Assembly: GCA_003614675.1 (NCBI GenBank)
Contig: ML002311.1
Span: forward strand, 1-43,952
Reading direction: 5' to 3'
Length of the DNA stretch: 43,952 bases
Source of the DNA: Dimargaris cristalligena
Lineage: Eukaryota
Numbering within the stretch: position 1 is the stretch's first letter; the number at the start of each line of letters is the position of its first letter. Positions 2,307 to 40,604 of this stretch are shown here, piece after piece. The notes beneath the pieces were generated by a model. The model made no database searches. It saw only the letters and a program-made list of their open reading frames with translations, and had not been told where the DNA came from. Made by a program: the position numbers and the translations under genes.

Positions 2307-3169
2307 GGTTGGTGGATATAAAAATACAGGTAACTTAGGGTTTTTTTATTTGTGTAAAGGAAAGTAAAGGTATACGTGAATGGGCGGGGTCAGGGGGACC
2401 GGAGAATAGAGAGATGCGAGAGGCCATGGGGACAATCTACGTTCCGGGTCAAACTGGTTCAGCCCAGAGTTAGTGACCCCTTACCCCGTATTTTAGGAGC
2501 AAGGACTACTACTATACACACCCCATTAGTGTCCCTAATAGGGGGTTAAGGCGGGGATGGCACAGACGAATAACTATAGTTTTTTTGGGAAAGATGGAGT
2601 GTGAAATAGTAAACAAAGTAAAGGCCAATCACAGAGGTCGGCGGAGTCCCAATGGTCGTCAGGCCGACCTCAGTAATTAATTATGGAAGCGCGGGGTATC
2701 GGCCGGTTAATAGTCGTGCGCGTACCTTTCCTTCGCGGCTGACGCGTGAGGGGTAGAGTAGTGGTGATATATTCTAGCCTAGTGTTGGCCGGCTTTACTA
2801 TTCTCTCTACCTACCTTTCTTTCGCATGTAACATACATATAGATTCTTTTTCAACTTGCTGTGTTTTAGCCCTGTCTGATTCTTTACTCATATTGTTTCC
2901 GAGCTACCCGCGCTTTACATTGAATATACCGTCGAGACAGGTGGCTATCTCGCCTATATCCGAACCCCCCCTCTGTACCGAGCGCCCACTAGTTTGCCCC
3001 CCTCTATAGCCCTACTAGATACTGCTGCTTCCCACCGAGTGGATCCTCCCACCCCAAGCCTACTCGGTCATTCCATTGACCCACTCCCACTGAGACGGTC
3101 TCCTAACTCCCCCCCCCCCACACGCACACACACACTTCGTAGCGCCGAATTGCCCCCCCCTCGCGATCC

Positions 3170-4743
3170 ATGCAATCCCCTCATCCTAATGACATGCCCA
3201 TGCCCCCTCGTGGGCCGTCGCACACGACCCTTTCCCAATACAATGCTTCCCGTATGAGCTCCGCCGACCCACGGTCGGAGGGACTTCGGAGTCCCTTGGA
3301 CCAACGTGGCCCGACTCCCATAAATGGTAGCCGATACGCCCCTACCATACGTGGCTCGGCCATGCCCATGCCTATGCCCGACTCCCAACCACCGCCTCCC
3401 ATGTCGTCCGACTTCCACCAGCACCAATATCATCAGCAGCAGCAACAGCAGGCGGCAATGCATGCTTCGTATCACCCGTCGATGGGTAACCCCAGTATGG
3501 CCATTGACCCTCTGAATATGCCCCACCCTATGCCAACCCCCCAACCCCCACCGCAACTGTCGCAACACCATATGCCGGAACCAAACGATGGGCACGTCCC
3601 CCAAATCCCGTACGACGACGCCGGAGTTCCCGGGGTATACAGTCAACTCCAACTAGCCAACGAACCCCCGTTTGACCACATCATGCACGAACCACCCCCA
3701 CCACCACCACCACACCTACAATCGATTCATCCGGATGGACCGTTCCCTTCAGTACCATTGGGTTCCGGGGTTGGGAATGGAAATGGGCTGCATCATCCCG
3801 TACCGTTCCACCCCCAAAGTCAATCGCCCGCTTTCGACGGGCGGATCCATATGCCCGAACCCGGGGCCATCATGAGCAGCGAAATGAACCCCAACCTATC
3901 CCAACGTCCCCCATCGGCCATTCCCCTGGGCCTCCCGATTGACCGGCCGGCCGTTAGCCCCCCTCCGCTGGGCCTGATGGACCGGTTTTTCAACGTGATC
4001 CGACCCCCGCCTGATGGATACGTGGGCGTCAATTACCCCCCGAACCACCCCTACCACGACGTGTCGGGCGGCAAACACCACGCCCAACTGGCCCGCTATG
4101 CCTGGATGCGGCGCTACTGCCTCATTATCTTCATCTCCATTTCCGTGATCCTGCTGGTCGTGGTGGCCCTATTGCTTTATTTGGCTTTAAGCAAGAATGG
4201 CCAGCCGTGCGGACCGGCCTGTTTAGGGGTGGGTGCGCCCGGATTATACTTGGCGGATTCGGGACAGGCCCACCGTATATCGGTTCTGAATAACACTTGT
4301 CAGGTTTATAGCGAGGATGATGTTTACTACGCAGCTATGGTAAGTTGACCGTTATTGTTTTTTATAGTGATCGGTATCGGCTGTTTCATTTTCATGTATA
4401 TATTTTTTTCGGGTGCCTTGGCATTACTTATTGGATACGACTACCGCCCCCACCTCTCTAACCCTCCCTGTGAATCATTGTGGACTTTCTTTATATATAT
4501 ATATATATATATATTCCTACTCGTTAGAACCTCGACCAGTTCGGCGATTACAGCAATGCTACCAATAGCCCCACATGCGGCAAATGTATTCGTGTTTACG
4601 GACCAGGAGGGACTGTACAGGCCAAATTGGTGGACCAATGTACCTACTGCTCATATGGTTCAATCGCTCTAAGTAGCTCAGCCTATTCGGTCATTGCCGA
4701 TACTTCGGATCGCATCATTCCCGTTCGATGGGAGGGGTGTTAA
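3170..4743 (+). CDS. Type II membrane protein with a Pro/His/Gln-rich N-terminus, one TM helix and a C-terminal RlpA-like double-psi beta-barrel (expansin/loosenin/barwin-like) domain; ~461 aa; exons 3170-4339 and 4528-4743
   Basis: The 392-aa ORF has a GTAAGT donor at 4340. The TTAG acceptor at 4527 gives in-frame NLDQFGDYSNATNSPTCGKCIRVYGPGGTVQAKLVDQCTYCSYGSIALSSSAYSVIADTSDRIIPVRWEGC*, which fits the DPBB pattern (CGKC.V.GP.G.V...VD.C..C..G.LDLS..AF..IA......I.W). The TM segment YCLIIFISISVILLVVVALLLYLAL follows WMRR. Confidence 0.85.
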
Positions 4744-5524
4744 TCCACAACGAACCCCCCCCCCCTGTTTATTTTTGCTTCATGGTATCTTACTAGTACT
4801 CCCATTTGTTGTGTTATTCAGTATATATATATTTGGACATGCTGCCTACTGGATGTATCCTTCAGCTCTATTACAATCGCTGGGCCGTATCCAGCTTGCC
4901 CATGGCCTCTAATCCCTCTCCCCCTCCCCTTCTTTGTATTTTAGCAACCACCTTTTAATTGTTTTTACATAGTACCTTTTTAGTGGATCTAAGCACCTCA
5001 CAGATTGGGTGCCCGTACTTTCCGTTTTGCTCGCACATAATCCTATTATATATAGCTGGCCCTGCCCTTGGGCAGGCCTAGCCGCTTCATAATTTGACAT
5101 TTCATTTTACTATTACCCATCTAATAAAATAGGCCCCATTTTATCATTCCATCCTTTCTCTCTCTCTCTCTCTCTCGCCTTGCCTCATTTCCCCTCACAT
5201 AAAAATACACAACCATACACTGGGCCTGGGAAACAGGGCCTCCGATCCGTCCACATAAATCCATCATGGGACTTTTTCAACCCATCCAAATCATCAAAGC
5301 ATCCCCATGCGGCTGTGACTGGCGATGGAGTCCCCCAAACAGTTAGTGGCCCGCACAACAGCCGCTCATTTTAAAGACCGTCACAGCGCAGGCCTATCCT
5401 CCCCAACTAAGTTCTTCGTTTGTCTCATTCCCTTACCAGTTCGAACTAGCCCACCTCAGCCGTCTTCCACCCTTATTATTACGCCTGTACGTTACTTACC
5501 CGTTAAACGTCCGTCACCATCACC

Positions 5525-7284
5525 ATGTCCAACGAGGTAAGTGGGCTTAGCCAATGTACTGTACTCTCTCATGAGAAGCGCGGCAGGCCGCCTAAACCAG
5601 TAGCCCCAGTCTGTACTCTCTATGAACGAACCCAGGGAGTCCATATATTGGTGGTACTATGTGCGCATTTTTATTTTACCTCTTCGACGTACGAACATAC
5701 ACCCCCTCCCCTCCATTTTAACCCCACTAGTCCGGCTTCCACTTGGTTTGGAATATATATTCTTCCTCTACAGAAGGGCGCCGATATTGTGCTATACAGC
5801 TACTTCCGCTCGAGTAGCTCCGCACGTTTGCGTATCGCTCTCAACTGGAAGAAAATGCCCTATCTGATGCGCCCCATCAACCTACTCAAGGGCGAACAGG
5901 TAGGTTTAGCCTATACACACCCACCCACATGCATACACTTTCTCTCCCGCCTTTTCTCTTTGCATACTCTCCATTAATCAATATCTTGACTGATGGAAAC
6001 AAAGGGCACTTAGCTCAGAGTGGGGTGGAGGTGAGATTATATAAAAATGAAGTGACTTAAATATATAATTATACTATACGTACCCAACCATAGAGATCCG
6101 CCGAATATGCCGAAATCAACCCGAACAGGTCGGTTCCCACCCTTATTGTCAATGATGTGAAGCTGGTCCAGTCGGTCGCTGCGCTGGAATACCTAGAGGA
6201 CCTTTATCCCGGTAAGCCATCCCATATACAATATTATTATTTTAAAAAAAAACGCCGGATTGTCAGTATAGTAACTAGTATAGGCCGTCTGAATATCTCT
6301 CACACCATTACTAATATTTACTTGGTATTCCATACTCTTATTGCACCTAGGATATCCGCTTCTCCCGCTGAACCCAGAGTCCCGGGCCAAGGTAATAAAC
6401 ACTAACCTCGTATTGTTAATGCTGGGTCTGGGAATGAGCAATGGTTGGGAGAGGGTCGATGATCGACTATATTCAGTGATATTATATGCCTATTTTATTA
6501 TTTTAGTGCGCCTATACCAAAGACTTGAAGCGCGGTACATTTCCTATATGTCATCTAAAATGTAACTTGGCTCTGCTATCGCTTTTGGTTTGGGTTGTGA
6601 TTATTGTAGATCCGGGAAATCGTCCAGGTTATTGTTTCTGATATTCAGCCCGTTCAGAATTTCCGAGTTCTCCAGAAAGTAGACCAAGCCGAACGGACCG
6701 AATGGGCGAAAAATACCATTGAGAAAGGGTTTGAAGGTAGGCGACATTGCCCCTCTGATATATACTTAAGGATTGGATGATTTGAATGGATATATTAGGT
6801 TATGCGGGGTCTCTATTGATCGAATCCCCGATATCTATTCTAATTGCAGTGTATATTATTGACCGCACCGCCCCTCCTAGCTCTCGAAACAATGCTCGTC
6901 CCGGTAGCGTCCCAGTACTGCGTTGGGAGCAGTGTGACTCTGGCCGATGTGTGCCTGGCTCCCCAAATGTGGAACGCGCAGAGGTAAGCGCGTATCTAAG
7001 TTACTCCTTTGCTAAGCGAACTGATAGTTTGGTTAGTAGAATTCTAATTGACCAGTCCATTTGGATAAATTCATGATAATTAATTAATATTCCTTTACCC
7101 GGGATCCCCCTCTACACACACACACACACACCACCTGGCTTCCTGTTTACCCAGATTCGGAGTTGACCTCGATCGGTTCCCTACGATTGGACGAGTCTGC
7201 CACAACCTGATGGAGTTGGAGGAGTTCCGTGCGGCCCACTGGCAGAACCAGCCCGACTGTCCCCCCGAATTGAAAGGGCAGTAG
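5525..7284 (+). CDS. maiA: Glutathione S-transferase zeta / maleylacetoacetate isomerase, ~218 aa, 7 exons: 5525-5536, 5774-5899, 6094-6211, 6351-6391, 6610-6736, 6881-6983, 7155-7284
   Basis: Spliced motifs are [90 protein letters not shown] and AAHWQNQPDCP. All introns are GT-AG with consistent phases. Confidence 0.93.
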
Positions 7285-8169: not shown

Positions 8170-8978
8170 CACATCCATTAGAAATATGAAGGACATATTA
8201 AAATTAATAATCCCGGATACACAGGTATGAGTGCGACATTGCTACAGCTTAACCAGGTGCAGTACTTCCTCCTATGCCTCGCAGCCCTCTCCCCTTATAT
8301 ATCCCCTTCGTGTACACTCTTTGGGACTGAGACCTGGGCGCTGGTGGAACTCCCCATTTGCACTCCCCCTCCTGGAGTCCCGCCGACCTTATTCATTAAG
8401 CCGCGCATAGGCAAGGCAAAATAAAAAGGCTTTGAAGTGAAAGTTGTGTGTGTGTGTTGTGCCATTTTGCCAATGGAGAAAGACAGAGGGAGAGTGTGTG
8501 TGCGGCTATAATAGCGCTCTTGGCTTTATTGGCTAGTGGGCAATCGTATCTACAAAAATCCCTTCTGAATTAAGAAGGGTTGGCTGAAGCATACGCTGTC
8601 TACGCATATAAAGACGAGGGATTACAAATGAAATAGAGGGGAAAAACACGCATATACGCATACATACACACATACATATATGTAAGGCCTCGGCTGGTTC
8701 GGTTTAGCCTTTGCTCGGTCTCTCTCTGTTTAGCTCGCCAATGTACAACGCAACGTATTTCTAACTCTTTTACATTCCTTTCATTCTTTTTTGGCCATTT
8801 ATCGCCCACCCCTGCCTATTTGTTTTGTAAACCACCCCGTCTAGCACTTAACTTGTACTACCCCACTTAACCTTACCCGAGTATTCCTAGCAATTAGTCT
8901 TAATTCCCCCACTATACTGTGCTACCAACCCACAATTGAAACCTCAACATACCCACCTACTCCTACACCCCCTCGCCC

Positions 8979-10888
8979 ATGTCCGATAAGCCCCTGACGG
9001 ATTCCACCTCGGACTTACCCGCTGTCCCTGGCTCCAACCACCTGGCCGCCGGAAGTCTGTCGTCACCATCGTCGTCGCTGTCCATGTCGCCAGCTTACCC
9101 TCTGGTAGAGGGGGGCCCGCCGGCTTACTTGAGTTGCCCGAGCGAACCCCGTCTGGCCGCTCGACTATCCCGGCATTTGACGCTGCGCCGGGTTTTGACG
9201 GGAATATTCATCGCCTTTACGTTGGCCTATCTGGTGCTCAGTATTGCCCAACTCGGTGAACACCCTCCACCACCACCACCGTCGGGACACCCACCACCAC
9301 GGCACTACCCATTGGGACTGCCCTCGGACCTGCGCGAGTCTAACCAACGCCCAACCCCCGAGAAACTTAATGCCACCCTATTGGCTCCCACCTCGGGTGA
9401 AAACTGGGACCCTTCGGCGGTGCCACTCGACTTCTTTGTCATGTCCAAGTGCCCAGGTAAGTACTAATTATTTGGGCTGGTTCAATTGCCTGTTATTCAC
9501 TCCCTCTTTTACTACTGTTCCGCTGAGGAGGCATGCCTTATGCTGGGAACGGGGTATACGGGGGTTGGGGGGGGGAGAAGGGTGTACATCAATGCCCCAT
9601 ACATTGTCAATGGGTTAGCCAATAATGCCTCACCCTTGCATGATGTTCGCATATATCCGCGTCCCTCGAGGGTGGTATCGGAGGCATTCCCATAGCCACT
9701 AAGAATTAGTACCTGACTAACCAGTTGTTCCTATGCTGTGGTTTATACACCCTAACGATAGACGCTGTTTTCTGCGAGAACTACTTGTACAGTATAGGTA
9801 AGCCACACCTTGATAAATATAACTACGCACTCTGTAATCAGCCCATTAACGCACCCACCCGCTTCTCTTTAACTATTAGCCGATAATTCGTACTAATCTA
9901 GCCCCCCCTGCTGTGATTCAATATAAATATTACGTTTTACCCCTTGACCACGCCTCCTTTCACGTATAGTTCAAAACCTCAAGCCCATAGTTATACCCCG
10001 GTTCCACTACATCGCCACACTTGAACCGTCCGGGGTGAAGTGCATGCATGGTCCTAATGAGGTAAAGCCCCCAACTTTAACTTTCTTATCTAATAATCCC
10101 CCTAGTTGCCCTCATCAACCCATTCCCAGTTTACTAGGGCGTAGTAGGGGAGGGGGTTAATGTCACTATCGTCCTACTGGTGAATTAAACCAGTGCGGTG
10201 CCCCTCATTGTATTCACCACTGTCCACCCTATAAATAATTATTATTGCATGTGTTCTTTCCCTTCTAGTGTGCTGGCGATATACAGCAACTTTGCGTAGC
10301 CCAGCAGTTTGGTGGGCACCAGGCCTACGATTTTGTACACTGCCAGAACCAAACACCCCACCGGATAGGGTTGGAGCGATTGGCCACTCAGTGCGCCAAA
10401 GAGACGGGGCTGGACTACCGCAAGGATATTCAGCCCTGTGTCGAGGCTAACGGGACTCGACTTCTCAAGGAGTCGGCCCAACTCGTCAAAAAAATTGGAG
10501 TTAGGTAGGTATTATAGAAGCAATGCTATCAACTTCTCCTTGCCCCCCTGTTTCATTGTATACACCACACCCATGGGCGGTTCGCCCTGTGGCGGTGGTG
10601 ACGTTTAATCCATTACATAATGTACTTAAAAGTATCTATGCGATTTTATTACAGGGAGGTTTGTTATCTAATCACTTTCACCTTCTGATGTATCGACCCT
10701 TGAAACCAATATCCCCCCAATGCAGCACGAGCTGTACCATGTACGTGGACCATAAATTCCACTGTATCTACGAATCCGGCTGGCAAACCTGCCCCGGAGG
10801 CCATTCCGAAAAGGACTTTACGCGGGCCATTTGCAAGGCCTACCGGGGCCATTCCCATAATAAACCCAAAGCATGCCAAGGCCTATAG
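8979..10888 (+). CDS. GILT (gamma-interferon-inducible lysosomal thiol reductase)-like protein with N-terminal signal-anchor, ~334 aa, 5 exons: 8979-9456, 9762-9797, 9970-10061, 10269-10504, 10726-10888
   Basis: Spliced VPLDFFVMSKCPDAVFCE and KCMHGPNECAGDIQQLC match the GILT signature CxHGxxECxxNxxxxC (with N to D). The C-terminus is Cys-rich (SCTMYVDHKFHCIYESGWQTCPGG...ICKAY). The TM segment is RRVLTGIFIAFTLAYLVLSIAQL. Confidence 0.85.
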
Positions 10889-13378
10889 GCTTGGTCCCAT
10901 ACGTACACACTGTTTGAAAGTCCCTGTTGGCCACCCCGTCTAGAGAGTCATACATCTCTCCAGCTGCTCAGTCGTCAATTACATGATCCGGCTGTATTCG
11001 CGCCCCACACTTAAACTTGGGTGCAATATAGAGACAGTATAAGGGGTGATTGCTTGGGTTTCTCACATTTCTCTATTTATTCGGTGCACCACCACCTTTA
11101 TTATACCTGTTATTTGTTTTGGTGCTTGGTTTGTTTTCTGGTATCTATAGTTCCTAAGAAAGCCTAATTGTTCTTATCTGTAAATGCCGGTGTATATATT
11201 TGGGTTTGATTGAAAATGGAAGGTGGAGTTTCTTGAGTAGTACGGCTGTATAGGGAGGCCTCTATTAAGCATGTCGCATCATCTACCGATATGGCCGCCC
11301 TTCCGAATATACAGAGAGCCTCTAAAAGAGATTGGGTTCGCCACAAGCTTAGGTGCTCCGGTAGAGAAGGGGGGGGGGGGTTGTGGAGAATTCCTCCGGA
11401 CTTTCTCTTCTAGGGTTTGTCAAAGGGAGCCAGGGAATTACAGGAAGGTTGGTGTTAGAAGAGGATGAATGAATATGAAGGACAAGGGTTGTTGGTTGAC
11501 GCCACTTATTAAAAAAGTCGGCGCATTAAAAGGGTCAGCTGGTTGCTTTACCGCGTACCTTCTTCTTCATCCACCGCCCCGTCTCCTCCTCCTCCTCCTT
11601 TACCATTTTAAACCATTTTTTGGTTGATTCCGCAAGCCTTCTTCGCTTCCGCCAACTAACTAATTGACTGACTCTATTCTATTATTTTGGTATCCCCGCT
11701 CAGATTGAGAGATATGCCCAGCCATTTCATTTTTGTTCACCCACTCAAAATCCCTTGAGTGTAATGGCAAGATATACTAATTCGGTAAAAAGGATTCCGA
11801 ATAAAATAAAATAGGCGATGGAAATCCGAGATCGTAGTGTATATATCCCTCTTCCTCATTTCCGCCCATCACAACTTCATCATGATCGGTTCGGGAAGAT
11901 GTTCTCTCCTCGTTAATGTAGCACATGTTACCGCTGTTGTTTATCTTTAGGGGTTCAAGCTAACTAAATACCCATATCGGGTGAATAATTTCAATACTTG
12001 AGGGTCATTAACTAAGTATCGTTACATCTAAAATCGCGCTATCCACTGTGGTGGGGTGGCATGTGTCTAATCGTGCTATCCCCCCCCTCCTTTACTTTAG
12101 AGGGCGCCTACCTAATTCGATGGACAATAACGACACCGATCTAATGGGAATACTGGATAGAATAGACCCAACCTATACACTCCCACACACACCCCTCCCC
12201 GTTTTCGTCTTATTTTATCCCGATTCCTACCCTGATATAGCCCGTGTCTACCGTGGCTAAGGATCGGAAAAAAGAGACGGGAGGGGGAGGGACCCGTAAA
12301 TAAGAGGTATTCCGAATTTCCGTCGTCTAGGTGAATTCGTTGAACTATAATGTCGCCAATCCACCCCACATTCAGCCTTCACCATCTCTCTCTCTCTCTT
12401 TCTGATAATATAACGCCCCTTCTGGAATCATGCCTAATTCTAAATGAAGATACGTACGCCAGCCCCGCAGAGGCGGCCCGTGGCTAGGCTAGGCGCGTAT
12501 TACCAAGCCCAGTCGATTTAACTACTTCAACCCAAACCGTTTCCATTTCGTACCCCGCCGCTTGGAAAGGTGGGGAGGGGGGCGTTCCGATGAATGGAGT
12601 GGTGAACCATGAATCGGGAATAATGTGGTTGGTATGCCTCTTCCTCATCGTCGCTGCCCCGGGAGCTATACGCTAAAGATATGATGGATTCCCTGGATAC
12701 CGGTTATCCACCCCATCCCACCTGGCTCAGCTAAACCTTCGCTAATGCCCAGGAATAGCACCTGACAGAGAAAGAAAGGGATAGTCTGGGCTCTAAATTA
12801 CCCCTATCTTCAGGCTAGGGACAAGGTTCACGGTCACGGTCACGGCCACGACCACTCCTCACCCCATTTCTCTTCCCCATTTGCAGCACGGCGGTATGCG
12901 CGAGGCATGCACCAGGGCAGGGACCAGGCGTATAAATAATGCATTACCTTCTCCTCCTTCTCCCTTTTCAATACTAAGAAAGCATTTTTACTTAAACTCC
13001 GCCGCCCATTATTGGCCATCTTCCTATCCATTAGAATTCCCGAACTCCACACATTGTTTGACAGGTCGCTAACCCTCTAAAAAACTAGCTTATTTTTGAC
13101 CTGCCTCCCTTTCCTCCTCGCGATTCATTAAGCCTGCTTCATCCTACTCTCTACCGCCACATTGATACATTATTCACCTTTATATATGGATACATATACA
13201 TATATATATATATATATATATCCAGACATCACCCTACCTTCCCTCACTCTCCTTTACTCAATCAAGTCGTTTTCTTTCATCCATATCTCCTCTTATAGGT
13301 TGGAATTATAGTGTTCCTCCTCTACCTCCCGCTACTCTCCTCCCTCGTCACTTCCACACACACACGCATTATCCTGCC

Positions 13379-14182
13379 ATGTACTGCTTCGACATTTTGG
13401 ACAGCACCGACCAGAGCGTTTACGGATACGTTAGCCAGTAAGTAAACGCAATCCCCCACAACAATGTGAAACAATGAGTGGCGGTGCTTGACTCTATTAT
13501 ACCAGTGCATCTCAGAGTTTGGCGAATTAGACTCCCTCCCCCCCTCCTCCCTTGGCAATTGGTTTTCTGACAGGCGATGACCGAATCGCGCGATTATCAA
13601 TTAAACTCCGTCCCACTTTGGGCTCGGTTCATAAACTCCACTTTCTTCTATATAACCGTGATCTGTCACACTCCCATTCTAGCTTTCTCTCACTTTGGCT
13701 CCCATTACCTCGTCTAGTGGTTTTTAGCTAAAAACTATACGCCATACTCGCCTCTTCTTACTCTCTTTCTCTCTCTCTCTCTCGCTCTTTATAGTGAAAA
13801 CGAGCCCATCAGCAAAGTCAAGGAATATATCCGGAGGGATGTCTCTATACCCGATCAGCGCATTACCTTTTACAACCAGTAAGTGCTACCGACCATTGCC
13901 CCTTGTCAATTTATCTGATTGCTTTCACTACCTCCCTCCCCCTTCGAGCCCTACCCACATGGCATAAAAAGGGACAGGGGCCCAACTCTGATCCCCCCCC
14001 TCCATCCTCCTCCTCTTCACCAGAATATTGGACGGTATTGCTAACCCTTTAGCTATTCTATGAAAAAAATATAATCCCCCTACCGCCTTGTATTATATAT
14101 TAGCGGCCAAGAACTTCCCGATAACTACACCCTCAGCCAATGCAACATCGAAAATTGGTCCGAAATCAAAATGACCTATTAA
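13379..14182 (+). CDS. Small ubiquitin-fold protein, 73 aa, no C-terminal diglycine; exons 13379-13437, 13795-13878, 14104-14182
   Basis: gccATG start and two GTAAGT...TAG introns, both phase 2. The product MYCFDILDSTDQSVYGYVSHENEPISKVKEYIRRDVSIPDQRITFYNHGQELPDNYTLSQCNIENWSEIKMTY* aligns without gaps to ubiquitin residues 23-71, with 15 identities by hand (I23,V26,K27,I30,I36,P37,G47,L50,D52,T55,L56,S57,N60,I61,S65). Confidence 0.8.
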
Positions 14183-14288
14183 CCGTCTTTGGAGAGGGAG
14201 GGATCATGACAACCCCGGCACCCCCCACCCTTGCCTAGCCCATTCCCTTAGTTCAACCCAAACCCTGATACAGCTCAACCAACAGGTC

Positions 14289-14339
14289 CGAATCGAATCG
14301 AATCAAATCAAATCAAATCAAGTCAAATCAAATCAAATC
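14289..14339. repeat. Pentamer microsatellite (GAATC)3(AAATC)n in the putative 3' UTR of the ubiquitin-fold gene
   Basis: cgaatcgaatcgaatcaaatcaaatcaaatcaagtcaaatcaaatcaaatc. Confidence 0.9.
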
Positions 14340-15166
14340 CCATCGACCATCATAGGGCAATTATTTATATATTTATTTTTGCTATAGACCGCGCGGTTCA
14401 GACTCGCGCGACCTTCCTTCGCGCTATTAACAACGACACCGTTACCACAATGATGGCTCAGGCCATACACCCTTTTCCGGCTCATTCGTCAGCCCAATGT
14501 ATTTATAAAAGGGCTAGTTAAATTATACATTGTCTAAAACCCTACCATCCCATACCAAAAGTTTTCCATTGGCCATTCCGTTCCTCTTTAAATATAAGTA
14601 TAAATATATAAATAAAGCTACATCTATTGAGGGAATAATTGGCATTGTATTATTGTATTGATATGGGTGAAGTTCGGCCCAGTTGTATAAGGTTTTAAAT
14701 GATAACTGTATGGGATAATATATGGGAGATTTATTTTTAACCAGTCATATTTGCTTCATCCAACGGATTTTTCGTTATACAGCCCGGTTGAACCTCTCCC
14801 ATATGGTTCTACCATCAATGTAATTTATATATATGTATTGGGGCTACTGAAGTCTTCCGTATATATAAAATTTAATGGAATACGCCTTAAATGATCAATT
14901 ACAAAACCAATTATGGGATAATGAGTATTTTCTTAGTAAAAAACAAAAAGTATGCAAAAAGCCGATTAAACACATTGGGTATTTTGACTATATAAAAAGA
15001 GGGGAAAATGAAAACATTGGACCAAATAATCATAATGAGAAAAGTGATAGGGTGTGTAATATTGCAGCAGCCCATCGACAAGAAGAGATGAGTGTATGTG
15101 TGGGCGTATGGATGTTTAAGGAAAACCGAGTTAGAAAGAAAGGTGCGAATGGAGCCTCCTATGCTT

Positions 15167-18100
15167 CTACTGACTTTTCACCTGGAACAGCTGAATGTTC
15201 GTTCCATTCCACAGGCCCAACGGAGCCGTTCCGGCCACATAGATCTGACTCCACAGTAACCCGCGGTACCACGCGGACAATGGTTTCGACCAACGGAGGT
15301 GCCGAATCGCAATGGGGGGTGCGGCCCCATTAGTGGCGGCATCCAGATCCCGCGGTAACCGCTGGTGGAATTCGTTGGAACGGAGCAGGACCAGGACTTG
15401 CGTATCGGATTGGAGGGGGTTTTGGGCGAGATGGTCCTGGACGTAAGGTACGGTAGCGTCCAGGAGAATGAGGATGCCGCGGAGGGGAAGTTTGGGGTAC
15501 CAGGAATTGAACCATTCCAAAGTGGGGTAGAAATCTAGACCCGTGACGGGACTGCCGCCGCCGTTGGACGGTCGGCCCGACACCACACTAGTAGGGGAGC
15601 CGGGCTGACTACGTGGGGTCGGTGACGCCTCGGGTAGTTTGCCCCGCGCTTTATCCGACATACCGGCCAAAACCCGCTGTTCCCGGGCTTTTTGGACGTC
15701 TTCCCATTCGACTAAGGCTGTCGCAAAATCGAGTTGGGCCAGTTTGCGGACCGTATCGTTCGTACGGATCAGGGCGTACAAGAACTGCATATTGGACGAC
15801 ATTTGGTAATAGATCACGTAATTGATGATTTCCAGTACATACAAAAGGGAACGGTAGTTGCTTTCATTGGCCAGGAGTACCGTTGGGCTGGAGTAGATGG
15901 TCAAGAGACGCATGAGTTTATCGCTAGCAAAGGGTGTCAGACCCTTGAGGTAGGGCGCGATATTCCGGAGCACCATCAGCATGGTGGGATGCAGGGCGGC
16001 GTGGATTGTCTTGGTGGTGGTTATGAGGGTGTAGAAGGTATAGATCAGCCAATCGGCGTGGCTGATTTGGTTGGCCGGGATACGCATGGCAGTGGGTAAG
16101 ATGGCCTGGTCAAAGTTGCCATTTAACCGTTCGCCGAACCGCGGTTCCTCGGAGAAAATGTGGAGCAAAAAGACGGCCATTCGGACCTGGCCGATATAAA
16201 GGGGATCCGCCTTGTTGTCCCAGGAAAAGAACGAAACGGCAACAATGACCGACATGAATTCCTCGCTCTCGATTAAGAATGTGCTGAATTTCTATATTCC
16301 CCAATAGAGTAAAGCCCCGATCGAGATAACCATAGGAATGGGAATGCAAATGTTGATACAATACAATAATAATAGTAATTCTAATTATAAACGGTTAGGC
16401 TCTGATGGGGTTGGGTGGGCTACATGGGAAAATCTAAGATAGTCCCGATCCAGTCACACGGGGGGTAGCGGGCATTAAGCCCCATTATAGGGTATATTTC
16501 CACATTGATCCGCCTCAAAATGAACCCCTATAATTCATCTATGCAACCCAGTGTCTAGAATTACGATAATGGTACAGCCCCACACTTACCAGATTCACTT
16601 GAAGAAGAGTCCAAAGCAGCATCATAGTCTCCTGACAAATGTTATGCTGCGTACGACTGCCCATTTGGAAATAGGATGCCCTTGACCGGACCAGCAGGGT
16701 GAGGATGCGACTGATGTTGCTGGATAAAAAAGCGAAATCCCCTTGGCGGTGGAGCCGAGCCACGTAGCCATGGAACAGATTGAGGGACCGGTTCGAGGCT
16801 GGCGTCGTACCGTCCGCAGCGGGTTGGTCCTCGATGGAATGAGGACGGGGATGGGGTGACCCGTTTCCACTTATCCCTGGCTTCCCATTCTCTTCCCCAC
16901 CCACGGACTCCCCGTCAGCGGCGGTGGTGCTGATGGTGGATGCATTCTTAGCAGCGTTTAATAAGACCAACAGGGTCTGTATGCAGTACACGGCGAGTAG
17001 GTCATGAGGGTCGTGGGCGGGTTTCATTTTATAGGGAATGCCCCACCCGGCGGATTTGAACTTAAGGGCGGTATTGATGAGACTACAGAGTAAAGTAAGC
17101 ACCACTTTTTTGTCGGGGAGAAAGGCCAGGTAGTCCAAGGCACGGTTCGGTTGCGTTAGGATGGTACTGCCGGGGGTGTACATGGATTCGGAGAGTAGGC
17201 ACAGTAGAAGGCGCATGACTTCCAGTCGGTGGAAGACAAACTCTTTACTCGTAGCCACCAGTTGGGTCTGCCCGATGCCCGATTCCCAGATACAGTAGTT
17301 GATTTGCGCTTGTTGGGCGGCATCCTCCGATTTAGGAACGGTGAAGTCCGAAAGGAACAGCAAGTCTAGCACGGTCGACACTAGTCGCTCACCGAAGCAC
17401 CGGGACCCCTGTAGTATGACAGTTGGTGATAATATAAAAAAAAATAGGGGGGAGGGGAACTCAGTAGGGGATTCGAAACGAAAGCAGTGGCATATGGCGG
17501 TAAATACTATAGATAATGTGGGGGGGGTAGGCTATCCTAAAAATAATCCCGCTAATGGATCCGTTGCACTTACCTTTTTATGAGTCGACCAGAATAGACT
17601 GGCGGCCAATACCGCTTCATCCCCCGGAGCCCCGGTCTTTTCGTAGACAAAGGGGATAAGACGGGTCAACAAACGGATGCAATTGAGCAACTGCTTAGTA
17701 ATGGCCTGGAGGGCCTGGGGCGACGTGGGGGGTTGGGAGGTATCAGTGGAGGGGGTAAAAATGGGGGAGGATTTGATTTGGACGATTCTCTCGTAGAGCT
17801 TCGTGAATAGAGTAGCGAAATTCTCGGGGGCCTGGTCGCGGATTCGGCGGAGATCCTGGGCCGTGAAGAGGGAGAAGATATCGTCGGCGCTCTCGGGAAC
17901 GGACCATAGCTATATTAGGCGACCAGTGGTTTGAGGCAGGGGTGGATGCGTTAGAAATAGTGGAAGGGGCGGAGATTCAGCAGTATAATTCAGTATAGGA
18001 AAACAGTTATAAGAAGCCCTCGGATACTAAGCAATGGTATTTACGTTGAGTATAGGCGGTGTAACGAGTTAACACTTACACTCGACCAGTATTCGTCGTT

Positions 18101-19472: not shown

Positions 19473-20267
19473 CTATTTGTAAGACCGACCCTTACCGGTG
19501 TAAAATTCGTAGGCCAAGGCATGGACATCGGGAGCAAAGGGCGAGGGCAATTCGGTGCGTCCGGGACGGGTCAGGGGATCGCGCAAAAAGACGGTGGAGC
19601 ACGTATTGTAGTTCACTTCGAGGTAATCGGGGATAAACATCCAGGGCTGCATAAACGGACGTTCCTTGAACTTAAACTCGCCCTCCTTGGCGGTCTTTTC
19701 GAGCGTACACACGGCGGCGGGATTCACCTGGATCACATCGCCGTCCGCGGCGGTATAGCTCGGCAGATCCACCTTGCGGCCGTTAACGGTGACTTTACCG
19801 TGCCGCACCATTTGGCGGGCCATGTAGATGCTGGACGCAAAGTGGCTGCGGAACACGATAAAGTCGAGCCGGCGTTCCATGGGGCTGAACATTAAGGAGG
19901 CGGCCTGGGGGTGTTGCCGGTGGGCTACTTCCGCTTCGGTCGCTGCAATTTGACTCGCCGACAGGTCCGCGCCCAACGCTGAAGGGTTGTTGGCACCGCG
20001 GTTGAGTTTGGCGCGGCTGGCCGACAATAATTGGATATTGAGGGTGGGGAGCCGGGGCTTGAACATGCTCAACCAGGACCGTTCGGTGGTGTGCGAATCG
20101 TGGTAGGCGCGGGTTTCCCGTTTGGCTACCCATTGCTGCTGGTACACCGTCTTGCGGGTGCCGTCGAAAAGGCGACGGTTCTTGGTGGAGAGATTGTAAA
20201 GATTGGTCTTGTTCCACGACAGACGGACGAGACCGCGCAGCGTACTGTAGACCTTGGACCGGCGCAT
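19473..20267 (-). CDS. NAM9: Mitochondrial small ribosomal subunit protein uS4m (Nam9), 264 aa
   Basis: Uninterrupted ORF. It has the Nam9-like N-terminus (RGLVRLSWNKTNLYNL, KTVYQQQWVAKRETRAYH), the S4 domain MERRLDFIVFRSHFASSIYMARQMVRHGKVTVNG...GDVIQV, and the C-terminal FIPDYLEVNYNTCSTVFLRDPLTRPGRTELPSPF. Confidence 0.93.
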   Translation of the reverse strand: MRRSKVYSTLRGLVRLSWNKTNLYNLSTKNRRLFDGTRKTVYQQQWVAKRETRAYHDSHTTERSWLSMFKPRLPTLNIQLLSASRAKLNRGANNPSALGADLSASQIAATEAEVAHRQHPQAASLMFSPMERRLDFIVFRSHFASSIYMARQMVRHGKVTVNGRKVDLPSYTAADGDVIQVNPAAVCTLEKTAKEGEFKFKERPFMQPWMFIPDYLEVNYNTCSTVFLRDPLTRPGRTELPSPFAPDVHALAYEFYTGKGRSYK

Positions 20268-20711
20268 GCTGAAAATAAGGCAATTAAGGGACGAGGAGGG
20301 GCTTAATTAAGAAAAATAGAACCGACCTGGATAATTCTAGACGATCGGGAAAAGCAGCGGGGCTGGCAAACGGAAATGGTAACGGGTCCCGTTGTTAGAA
20401 TTCAACCGTAGAGCAAAGTGTGTAGAGGCCCCATGGGATCATACAGACCAGCAAGGAGGGGGAGGTGGTTGATCGGTGGTTGGAATCTCTAGATCCAGTC
20501 GGACTATGGCTTTCTTGGGTGGTCTCTAGTCCTGATCTCCACAGCTGCTGATACAATAATAGCCGAGCAGTTGAGTCTTTCGCCTATGGACTTGCTACGG
20601 TTGCTACTAGTGGCAGGTCTATTTAGAACCAGATGGTCAATAATCCCTCGCTATCCATCTATACCTACACTGTATAGCCAGCGACCTTAATAAGTTTCTA
20701 GGTTTAGGTCT

Positions 20712-36600: not shown

Positions 36601-39600
36601 TTGGAGTGACCAGAGGGGGCGGACGGGGATAATAATACGAAGGACGGTGTTGTCAAAATAAAATAGAGAGTGTGTAAAAGAAATAAAAGTACAATGTCCC
36701 TTCGCTTGCACCTGTCAATATACTGTCCATTTCCAATTACTGGAGGTATCACCTGCCGACATTAAGACCTACTGCTGACATGGGTTCGACGATCGCATCA
36801 AGTGAGCATAGTGGCTGACATTCCAAGGCTAAACTTGGCATAGGATCGTCTAAAAAGGGTGATGATAAAATTGAAGTACAGTGACGATTCCATCCACAGG
36901 ACTGTCAGTGTTAGTGGGGACCTGGTGCTAGTCCATATTAGCTATTTATCACATTGCATGGGAAGATACAACTATTCCTTTTCCAAACATTCTGCCAGTG
37001 TGGTGGGGGGTTTTTTTTTTAAACAGCCTAAGGTGTGCCATTTTGAAAGCTCGTGAGATGAATTGCGAACCATTCGGTTAGGTTGCTGAGTCCATAATTT
37101 GCGCACAGTCTCCGTAGTTGGCGTAAGGACTATGGAGGTGTACTGTCGGGACTAATATCCGAAGTGGCCAGCCGGACTACTTACTCCGCCGAATTGGCAC
37201 CAGACTTCACCATTCTACTTGGCCGATGAGAAAGTGGGAGAATCTAAGGGCGGGTATGGAATGTCAGCCTTATTTTGATGCCTGAGGCAACTGCCTAGTA
37301 GATATTCCAACCTATACAGCGAATTCTGGGCAACTGTCAAAATTCAATGAAGGCAGTGCTAACGAAAATCCATTAACCGGTTTGGCTTGACTGGCCTGTG
37401 CTAATTATGGAGTATTATAAACCGCATTAAATTGACGATATTCTGCCTATTAATGCCAACCCACTGTACTTAATAGTCGAGCTTCAGACAATCTCCGGCA
37501 CTTTTATTGTTTCCTTTTCTGGGCCAAACTCCCCTTAGCCGACTACCCAGCTGATTTTCCCTGTGAGGGAGTCGAACTTCAAGGACTAAATCGAGAGAAG
37601 AGTTGTATTAATAAAGTTCACAGTCGTATTAAGCCGATTGAACCGAGTCACCAAAGCGATAAATGAATCACCCGCACCCTCATACATACTGGCGGTGGTT
37701 TATGGCCAGCCAACTCCACCTATTGGTCTCCCCCCCTTCACTCTCCCGACCCGTTAGAGAGGCCTTAACCGTGACAGGCGGGACACTCGGTTGATGCTTG
37801 GATGAGGGGGCCGATAAGCGTTGGAAAGGAGCCATTATGCTTACTAACAATTCGAACTGTGGATAAGATGTCTGCTTAAAGCGCAGCGCGTTCAATCAGC
37901 TCTATATGCCACCTTACTATCTATGGCCAATAGTCAGCCAATGTAAGAAATAAAAGGAAGATTGACTGATTATAGGCTAAGCGGCGGGGAAACTCCAGTT
38001 TCAGCAAAGCGAACAGCTAGCCGTCAAAGTTAATCGCCGCTTCTAAGGTAGGCACCCCCAACCCCATTAAGTTTTTTATGTATCCTAAATATTACTGTCC
38101 AGTGTATCATTTAAGTAAACGGGAGGGGGTATCTCATATTGAGCAGTCGTGGGTATCGGTCACCCCATTTACATACTATAATGGCTCGTTGGCATCTTCC
38201 CGACTGGATCTCTCGGGGCGGAGTTTGCAAACATGCCGTGTCAGCTATAAGAAGCTAACTATGTAACATAGGTGGGGCCATATGCACATACCTAGAATAC
38301 GTAATCGCTGATTGACCGAGCAAGGCCAGTTATCAAGAGAGATCGCATAAAATAAAGCACCAATGATTGGGCAAGAGTGGGTGGGGCTATTTTTACTGTG
38401 ATGGAGTTATTGGTGACGCGTTTTTGGAGCACCGCGTTGCTCCCATTGTTTAGTTGGGATTGGCAAAGAACATCCACGCTTATGCGGTTCGTCCATTTAA
38501 CACTCAATGATGCGCGTGGAAGCCATCCTCATAATGGAAAATGTAGTATGGTATGCAAAATTAGTGAAGTATACAGATTCTACCTACGAAAATATCGAGT
38601 GACTAGGCTCATTACAAAATGTGGATTTCGGATTTTGTGAATACCTTTAATTTAGCTATTATACGGTTTATTCGATATTATTTTCAACTATCTTCGTACC
38701 TATGGTCCAGCCAGGTACAATGCGAACGTAATTTAGTGCAGCTACGTAATACTTAGAAAGTAATCCACATTTAAATAGATAGTTATTACATTAATGCCTA
38801 GTAAAATCTAGTTAAATAGACGCTTTTATTATCAAACACTTAACCCTAGCGTCCCTCATACACACTCATTGGCTTTAAATTTATTAATTAAAGCATTGAT
38901 TTATTGATATCGTGGCTATGGTACTTCACATCTTGCACCTCTAAAGGGCCATAGCTTAGCTGGCGACTCGCCGACGACTCGTTTGCGTGTCCGGATAATA
39001 TATCTCCAAGGCTGTATATTAGGGCTGCACTATTCCATTTAACCCACCAGGATGTACATATCCGCGATTGTTCCTTATGGCAAAAACCATTGGCTAATCT
39101 CTCTCCCTTTCCCTCGCCTTTGAATTTCCGATTGACTTTTTTTTTTAATACAATAATTCGCTTCTTATCACTTAGCCTCCGTGGATTTACCAAATGCAAC
39201 GCACCATTGTTTTATCGGCGCAACGCTTGCTCTACCGCCCTGGTTGCCCCTTGTGGGTCGAACCATTTCCTTCCTTGGTGGCACGGGACTGGAGGGTTTA
39301 ACCTCCCAACCCCAGCGGCTTCGCTGGTCACCACGGCACGCAGCCCAATGCTGACTGCCGTAAAAACAAGGATGGTGCAGCAACTATTAACTGGATACCT
39401 AAACCGCCTGATAGAGAAAAATAGTAGAATACGAATGTGGTGTTTTAGCCAACCAACACCAGTGTGGATAGGGTTACCAGGCACTCCCTACATTCACAGC
39501 TGTACCCTCCTTTTATTTTATGTAATAGTATATATGTACTGGCTAAATAGCGATAATCCCGACATTCGGGACTTTAATACTTGCCTGTACCCTATTCACG

Positions 39601-40604
39601 ATTGATTTGGGTACAGCCAGAATATAGGCAACCATTCACAGCTACCCATTCAGCGAGCAAAGGGGAGATCACGGTCCGGAATACCCTGTCTATTCGGCCA
39701 TTTGTATTCTGTTTATAATACTATGCAGTTATAATGGTGTTCATCAATATGCCTGTATTCTACGCACGGAATCTTTGGCCATGGCTTGGTAGTAATGAAA
39801 AACGCTAACCCAATAGATGCGTCGAATGACCGAGTCGATCGCAACCTACCTCGGCCAATTCCCTTAGACTAATATCCGGGATTCGCCATATACATGGGTG
39901 AAGATTACCGTGACTATTTTCACGGCATATCTGGCTTTACATAATAAAATGTCGCTGAATTAGTTAACTGAGTGGGCTAATTAAAATGGCCAGATCTCAA
40001 TTATCGGGCAGATGGAAGATCGATTGGCTTATCGATCATCAATTTTTCGATGGAAACCAAGGGGCCGGGGCAATCAACGCCGATCGGGGAGGTTTGTAGA
40101 GCAGTAGGAGTTGTCCGTCCCAAACTCACCGTGCAATCATATTGGTCAATAAATATAAACGACACTGTTAATCTCATTGATTAGTTGGTCAATCGGAGCA
40201 CTGCTGCCAGGTGACAAATATAGATACACTATAGTAAAATGAAATGCACCCTAATATTTGGGTGGGCGAATACATGCAACGAGGGCCATCTAGTTACAGG
40301 GCAATTCAAGTCCCGTGAAAACAGCCAACGCATGCAACCCTTGAGAATCGAGGGAGGCCTATAATTTACAGTATAGGTTGGTTTATGGCGGATATGGGTG
40401 GTACAGCTATCATGCCTCATTGACTGTTTAAACTCACCCGAATACCCTCTGCTAGATCCGCATCATCATCCACTTCCAATACATCCCCGCCTTGCCTTTC
40501 GATTCCATCATTGCTTCATTGCCGACCTTTATCTCCTATTTAGAGCCTGAATTAGTATTTTACTTTTCCCGTATTACCACGTAGATAAGCCCAAAGCATA
40601 TCCA

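Follow-up and report, generated by a model that had tools for sequence, protein, structure and literature searches.

The question raised by positions 13379-14182 (+) of the 43,952-base window analysed here (the whole stretch of DNA under study, from the fungus Dimargaris cristalligena, Kickxellomycota, order Dimargaritales) is whether three very short exons encode a stand-alone protein of the ubiquitin fold and, if they do, whether that protein is one of the known ubiquitin-like modifiers or something apart from them. The original prediction, made from the letters alone, was of a hidden, non-conjugated ubiquitin-like protein (Ubl) of 73 residues. We find that the three-exon unit is very probably a real protein-coding gene, and that its product belongs to the ubiquitin family by profile and predicted fold, lacks the C-terminal glycine on which conjugation depends, and is already present in public databases.

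Gene structure and coding signal

Joining the three exons of Table 1 gives an in-frame coding sequence of 222 nt, comprising 73 codons and a TAA stop, and the predicted arrangement, with exons of 59, 84 and 79 nt, introns running from GTAAGT to TAG and a clean frame throughout, is recovered at every boundary. Both donors read CCA/GTAAGT (13438-13443 and 13879-13884), the acceptors read ...TTTATAG in intron 1 and ...ATATTAG in intron 2, and a CTAAC motif lies 59 nt upstream of the acceptor of intron 2. Stops occur in every frame of each intron (4 to 9 per frame in intron 1, 2 to 9 over both introns), so that read-through across the exons is impossible. When the 73-aa protein is searched against the window by tblastn, exon 1 is returned at 100% identity (E 2.5e-9) and exon 2 at E 1.7e-14; no second copy (paralogue) is found in the window by this search, the next match beyond the three exons standing at E 0.42.

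Table 1. Exons and introns of the ubiquitin-like gene, in window coordinates
Feature	Position	Strand	Length	Description
Exon 1	13379..13437	+	59 nt	ATG, 19 codons and 2 bases; predicted strands beta1 and beta2
Intron 1	13438..13794	+	357 nt	Phase 2; GTAAGT...TATAG; CT-rich tract ahead of acceptor; His20 codon split
Exon 2	13795..13878	+	84 nt	Residues 20-48; predicted helix and strand beta3
Intron 2	13879..14103	+	225 nt	Phase 2; GTAAGT...TATTAG; His48 codon split
Exon 3	14104..14182	+	79 nt	Residues 48-73, including TAA stop at 14180-14182; no tail

Several smaller features of the locus can be recorded here. Each of the two introns is in phase 2, is preceded by CCA and splits a histidine codon, and both intron lengths are divisible by three, which places the exons (13379, 13796, 14105, +) in one genomic frame. 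A TA/ATAC microsatellite occupies 13185-13221 (+), about 160 nt 5' of the ATG, and a stretch of repeated AATCA/AATCAAATC-type units lies at 14287-14340 (+), about 100 nt 3' of the stop. Long introns are the local style, because the conserved Hid1 neighbour contains an intron of 298 nt (16292-16589; GTAAGT...TAG, phase 0), which joins frames matching positions 156-380 and 382-639 of the Dymeclin profile.

GTAAGT occurs 25 times on the two strands of the window, against an expectation of 18.3 +/- 3.9; ten of these sites are on the + strand, and two of the ten fall exactly at the points where similarity to ubiquitin breaks off. The order of the exons moreover follows that of the Pfam ubiquitin profile: exon 3 by itself matches positions 45-67 (E 0.0096) and the joined product positions 7-67. 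Using a codon model trained on long frames of the window that contain no stop, we obtain a log-likelihood for the joined coding sequence of +17.5 bits in frame, compared with -23.7 and -22.5 bits in the other two frames. Long frames held out of training average 13 to 24 bits per 73 codons in five of six cases; the sixth, at 38955-39605, scores -14.3 bits and was excluded from training in a second run. None of 5000 samples of the same length drawn from the flanks and introns reaches the observed score, whether stops are counted or ignored. The GC content at third codon positions (GC3) is 0.66 in the coding sequence and 0.61-0.75 in five neighbouring long frames, versus an overall GC of 0.46-0.47 in the introns. 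A codon-score scan of 10900-15160 for further exons does not discriminate among short segments, since low-complexity stretches score as high as the true exons. Purifying selection we infer solely from the intact frame, the predicted fold and the codon bias.

Family membership, predicted fold and chain end

The 73-aa product passes the gathering cut-off of the Pfam ubiquitin family (PF00240; 29.3 bits against 25.4, E 7.5e-7), with residues 11-71 on positions 7-67 of the 72-position profile. A single-sequence AlphaFold2 model of moderate confidence (mean pLDDT 72, pTM 0.62, no residue at 90 or above) places strands at residues 2-7 and 13-18, a helix at 25-36 and strands at 42-47 and 67-72, the strand-strand-helix-strand-strand order of a predicted beta-grasp; the ESM Atlas model of the same protein has a pLDDT of 0.81. 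A Foldseek search with the AlphaFold2 model returns 378 PDB matches at E ≤ 0.001, headed by ubiquitin chains (TM 0.64-0.71, 24-28% identity). These results bear out the description of a stand-alone ubiquitin-fold protein, at the level of a profile match and a predicted structure.

Fold does not point to a subfamily. Structural alignment with VIA covers 995 chains, 332 of them at Z of at least 8, and ISG15, the HOIL-1L UBL, ubiquitin, Get5, HHR23A, Hub1, Rub1 and NEDD8 are nearly tied at Z 8.7-10.0, so that, with a spread of about one Z unit among these Ubls, the fold cannot assign a subfamily. In a sequence search of the PDB, the parkin Ubl is the best single-domain match (20.5 bits, E 0.0044), a single ubiquitin scores 14.8 bits (E 0.28), and the very low E-values belong to poly-ubiquitin chains, because repeats add up. 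Judged by sequence, the nearest relative is ubiquitin proper, though distantly. Two other profiles were tried and rejected: SUMO/Rad60-SLD (PF11976) reaches 20.8 bits, below its cut-off of 23.8, and SUMO chains show 17-18% identity in Foldseek; NitrOD1 (PF18549) matches exon 2 weakly, at 16-17 bits, also below its cut-off of 25.

The HMMER alignment pairs residues 22-69 with ubiquitin 20-67, gap-free and at an offset of +2; extending this offset puts Y73 on L71 of ubiquitin, in line with the predicted gap-free alignment that ends at the L71 equivalent. Ubiquitin residues retained at equivalent positions are K27, I36, P37, G47 and the stretches T55-L56-S57 and N60-I61; identity to ubiquitin is about 25% (Foldseek), and the equivalents of R72-G76 are absent. 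The protein also differs from ubiquitin in organization, as a single unit interrupted by two introns and neither poly-ubiquitin nor a ribosomal-protein fusion. One of the seven ubiquitin lysines is retained (K27); K6, K11, K29, K33, K48 and K63 are replaced, and the L8/I44/H68/V70 patch reads T/Y/K/T. As had been stated for K48, K63 and I44, their equivalents are Q50, N65 and Y46. The product is an acidic 8.7-kDa protein (pI 4.6; 12 acidic and 6 basic residues) in which 10 of 73 residues are aromatic.

The chain ends with M71, T72 and Y73, its final residue lying one position past the last strand (beta5, predicted at 67-72), and glycine occurs nowhere but at positions 16 and 49; there is thus no C-terminal glycine, and the claim that the Gly-Gly tail is missing stands. 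Conjugated ubiquitin-like modifiers require a C-terminal glycine, usually Gly-Gly, that is free or exposed by processing and is carried on a flexible tail. Given this established pathway, adenylation by an E1 enzyme and conjugation are excluded for the predicted protein, because its chain ends flush with the fold and without a glycine. A role as a chain acceptor, and reading by the usual ubiquitin receptors, would be unlikely given the replacement of six of the seven lysines and of the I44 patch.

Public records, relatives and competing readings

The spliced 73-aa product is identical, letter for letter, to a protein already in NCBI and UniProt (record P0003), which came up when the stop-to-stop frame at 13718-13879 (54 aa, enclosing exon 2) was used as query. 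The record, that of a hypothetical protein, comprises two NCBI accessions under two different D. cristalligena locus tags; the UniRef entry is named "Ubiquitin-like domain-containing protein" and carries a precomputed PF00240 match. The identical record occurs on two contigs, the longer of 44,061 bases, and the protein is in the ESM Atlas as well. The gene is therefore not hidden, and the suggestion that gene finders could easily miss it has to be dropped. Since two NCBI locus tags carry the identical 73-aa protein, two annotations arrived at exactly one gene model; both may be ab initio or homology-driven predictions, and they may come from closely related material and hence not be fully independent. 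Passages of PMC9866270 describe Kickxellomycotina genomes annotated with Funannotate and do not mention the 73-aa protein, and a literature search found no paper with both "Dimargaris cristalligena" and "ubiquitin" in its title or abstract.

An exhaustive HMMER search of 1.84 billion representative proteins gives 308 matches at E ≤ 0.001, and among the 150 of these that were listed, one is the 73-aa protein itself. The other 149 are poly-ubiquitin-like repeat proteins of 235-4605 aa, each with 3-12 matched stretches, and no single-domain relative is found among the 150 of 308 listed. Ten of the 149 were looked up: three are named "ubiquitin C", one "ubiquitin/uncharacterized ubiquitin-like protein YukD" and one "polyubiquitin-B", and five are unnamed. 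Upon local rescoring, no listed relative is significant on one stretch alone, because the best single stretch among the 149 gives 24.2 bits; a weak single-domain relative could be present among the 158 unlisted matches. In a word-based search, the sole match at 40-128 aa is the 73-aa protein itself, and at 129-2000 aa there is no match at E ≤ 10. At the level of annotated proteins the 73-aa protein is, on sequence grounds, an orphan within the ubiquitin family, and the earlier label of lineage-specific fits this absence of relatives (150 of 308 HMMER matches listed, and the word search).

A known protein that invites comparison is Hub1/UBL5, which has 73 aa and no Gly-Gly, acts non-covalently and functions in splicing. 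Could the gene be an extremely diverged Hub1/UBL5 orthologue of this species, acting in pre-mRNA splicing? The two share a length of about 73 aa, a stand-alone beta-grasp (predicted here), a C-terminal tyrosine and the lack of Gly-Gly, which allows non-covalent action only; the Hub1 structure 3plu_A aligns at Z 8.8 (rmsd 2.4, 71 residues), and a feature search of the ESM Atlas places a "Ubiquitin-like protein 5" cluster at rank 19 with a score of 0.91, which serves as a lead only. Identity over those 71 residues is, however, 13%, versus 20-27% for ubiquitin chains, and neither Hub1 nor UBL5 appears by name among the best 60 of 267 PDB sequence matches. The N-terminal Hub1 signature (MIEVxxNDRLGKKVRVKC) and the C-terminal Y-Y-X motif of Hub1 are both absent, the protein ending in T-Y. 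Between yeast and human, Hub1 shows strong conservation, and its orthologues would outscore the relatives listed here by a wide margin; apart from the protein itself, none of the 150 matches listed (of 308) is shorter than 235 aa, let alone close to 73 aa. The low identity, the missing Hub1 match among the 60 best PDB hits and the absent motifs together place the protein outside the Hub1 family by sequence, making orthology highly improbable. More broadly, the Pfam, PDB and HMMER searches and the structural alignment agree with the original prediction that the protein is not a sequence orthologue of Hub1/UBL5, SUMO, NEDD8 or Urm1. The exons might instead be part of a larger gene, with unseen 5' exons or an alternative 3' exon adding domains or a tail: the frame is open for 71 codons 5' of the ATG, about 2.3 kb upstream are without an evident gene, and the window is intron-rich, with merely nine stop-free frames of at least 180 aa in 44 kb. 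Against this, the open upstream stretch is of low complexity, made up of TA repeats and CT-rich sequence, the length in both public records is exactly 73 aa, the three exons suffice for the whole predicted fold, beta1 to beta5, and by eye there is no good-consensus GT donor just 5' of the stop. Likewise, no longer form of the protein emerges from the word search, in which no longer protein shares words with it, or from the 150 of 308 matches listed, among which no long protein contains a closely similar single domain. We regard a larger gene as quite improbable.

A stronger competitor, although still an unlikely one, is that the locus holds a non-functional remnant or a spurious model, that is, a duplicated ubiquitin or Ubl unit that has lost its tail and is decaying, with a product that is not made or not used. 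Its status as an orphan with no orthologue or paralogue detected is consistent with such a history, as is the weak similarity to a single ubiquitin, and a ubiquitin copy in decay would likewise be expected to have lost its tail, six of its seven lysines and the I44 patch. What weighs against decay is that the frame is intact over three exons, both introns having a perfect GTAAGT donor and a pyrimidine-rich acceptor, that the Pfam cut-off is passed and a beta-grasp is predicted from a single sequence at about 25% identity to ubiquitin, and that the in-frame codon bias and GC3 resemble those of neighbouring genes and not the introns; neutral drift to this distance would be expected to break both the frame and the hydrophobic core. 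We therefore favour, as the probable explanation, a real lineage-restricted gene of the ubiquitin family whose product is predicted to be non-conjugatable and to act only by non-covalent binding.

Under the favoured explanation of a functional, lineage-restricted gene, the product would be a bare ubiquitin-family beta-grasp domain whose chain stops one residue past the last strand. Without a C-terminal glycine it would be neither adenylated by E1 nor attached to substrates, and with its lysines and recognition patch replaced it would be an unlikely component of chains or ligand of typical ubiquitin-binding domains. If made, it would serve as a non-covalent binding module acting through its own surface, on the principle seen in Hub1/UBL5 and in UBL domains that belong to larger proteins, but with a separate evolutionary origin. 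The UBL domains of parkin, Rad23/HHR23A, Dsk2, Get5 and HOIL-1L are likewise non-conjugated binding modules of the ubiquitin fold, and those of HOIL-1L, Get5, HHR23A and Dsk2 are structurally tied with ubiquitin in comparison with the 73-aa model (Z 8.8-9.8); these domains are N-terminal in multi-domain proteins, whereas here the domain is the whole protein. We infer that the protein is expressed, maintained by selection and able to bind partners. A more tentative and rather doubtful extension is that the Dimargaritales evolved their own stand-alone non-conjugatable Ubl independently of Hub1/UBL5, which could act as a non-covalent adaptor in fungal cells or, more speculatively, as a decoy against the host. 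D. cristalligena is a mycoparasite that forms haustoria in other fungi; no classical signal peptide is apparent in the protein, because its N-terminus is strand beta1.

Among stand-alone proteins of the ubiquitin fold that are incapable of conjugation, Hub1/UBL5 is, to our knowledge, the only one studied in depth. If expressed, the 73-aa protein would be a second, independently evolved one, and would show how a poorly sampled lineage of fungi reuses ubiquitin units as binding modules. The practical value is modest, because this is a diverged and already annotated member of a very large family, with the fold as the sole clue to function; it lies in having the gene model right and in stating clearly what the protein is not.

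The surrounding window

A gene for a protein of the Hid1/Dymeclin family (15167-17531, -) is arranged tail to tail with the Ubl gene, about 1 kb past the stop of the latter, and its two long frames match Pfam Hid1 at E 1.8e-69 and 3.5e-53. A 277-aa stop-free frame at 19473-20306 (-) matches the S4 RNA-binding domain (PF01479) at E 4.8e-16, and its GC3, 0.745, exceeds that of every other frame tested. The outlier of the codon analysis, a 216-aa stop-free frame at 38955-39605 (+), has no Pfam match, lies in the lower-GC part of the window (0.43) and uses codons unlike those of the other long frames; it may be non-coding, or of foreign or repeat-derived origin. On the upstream side, stop-free frames at 5507-6405 (+) and 8940-9467 (+) end at GTAAGT sites 5537 and 9457, and a further stop-free frame at 3143-4348 ends at GTAAGT site 4340. 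By eye, the pair at 5507-6405 (+) resembles a protein of the glutathione S-transferase type.
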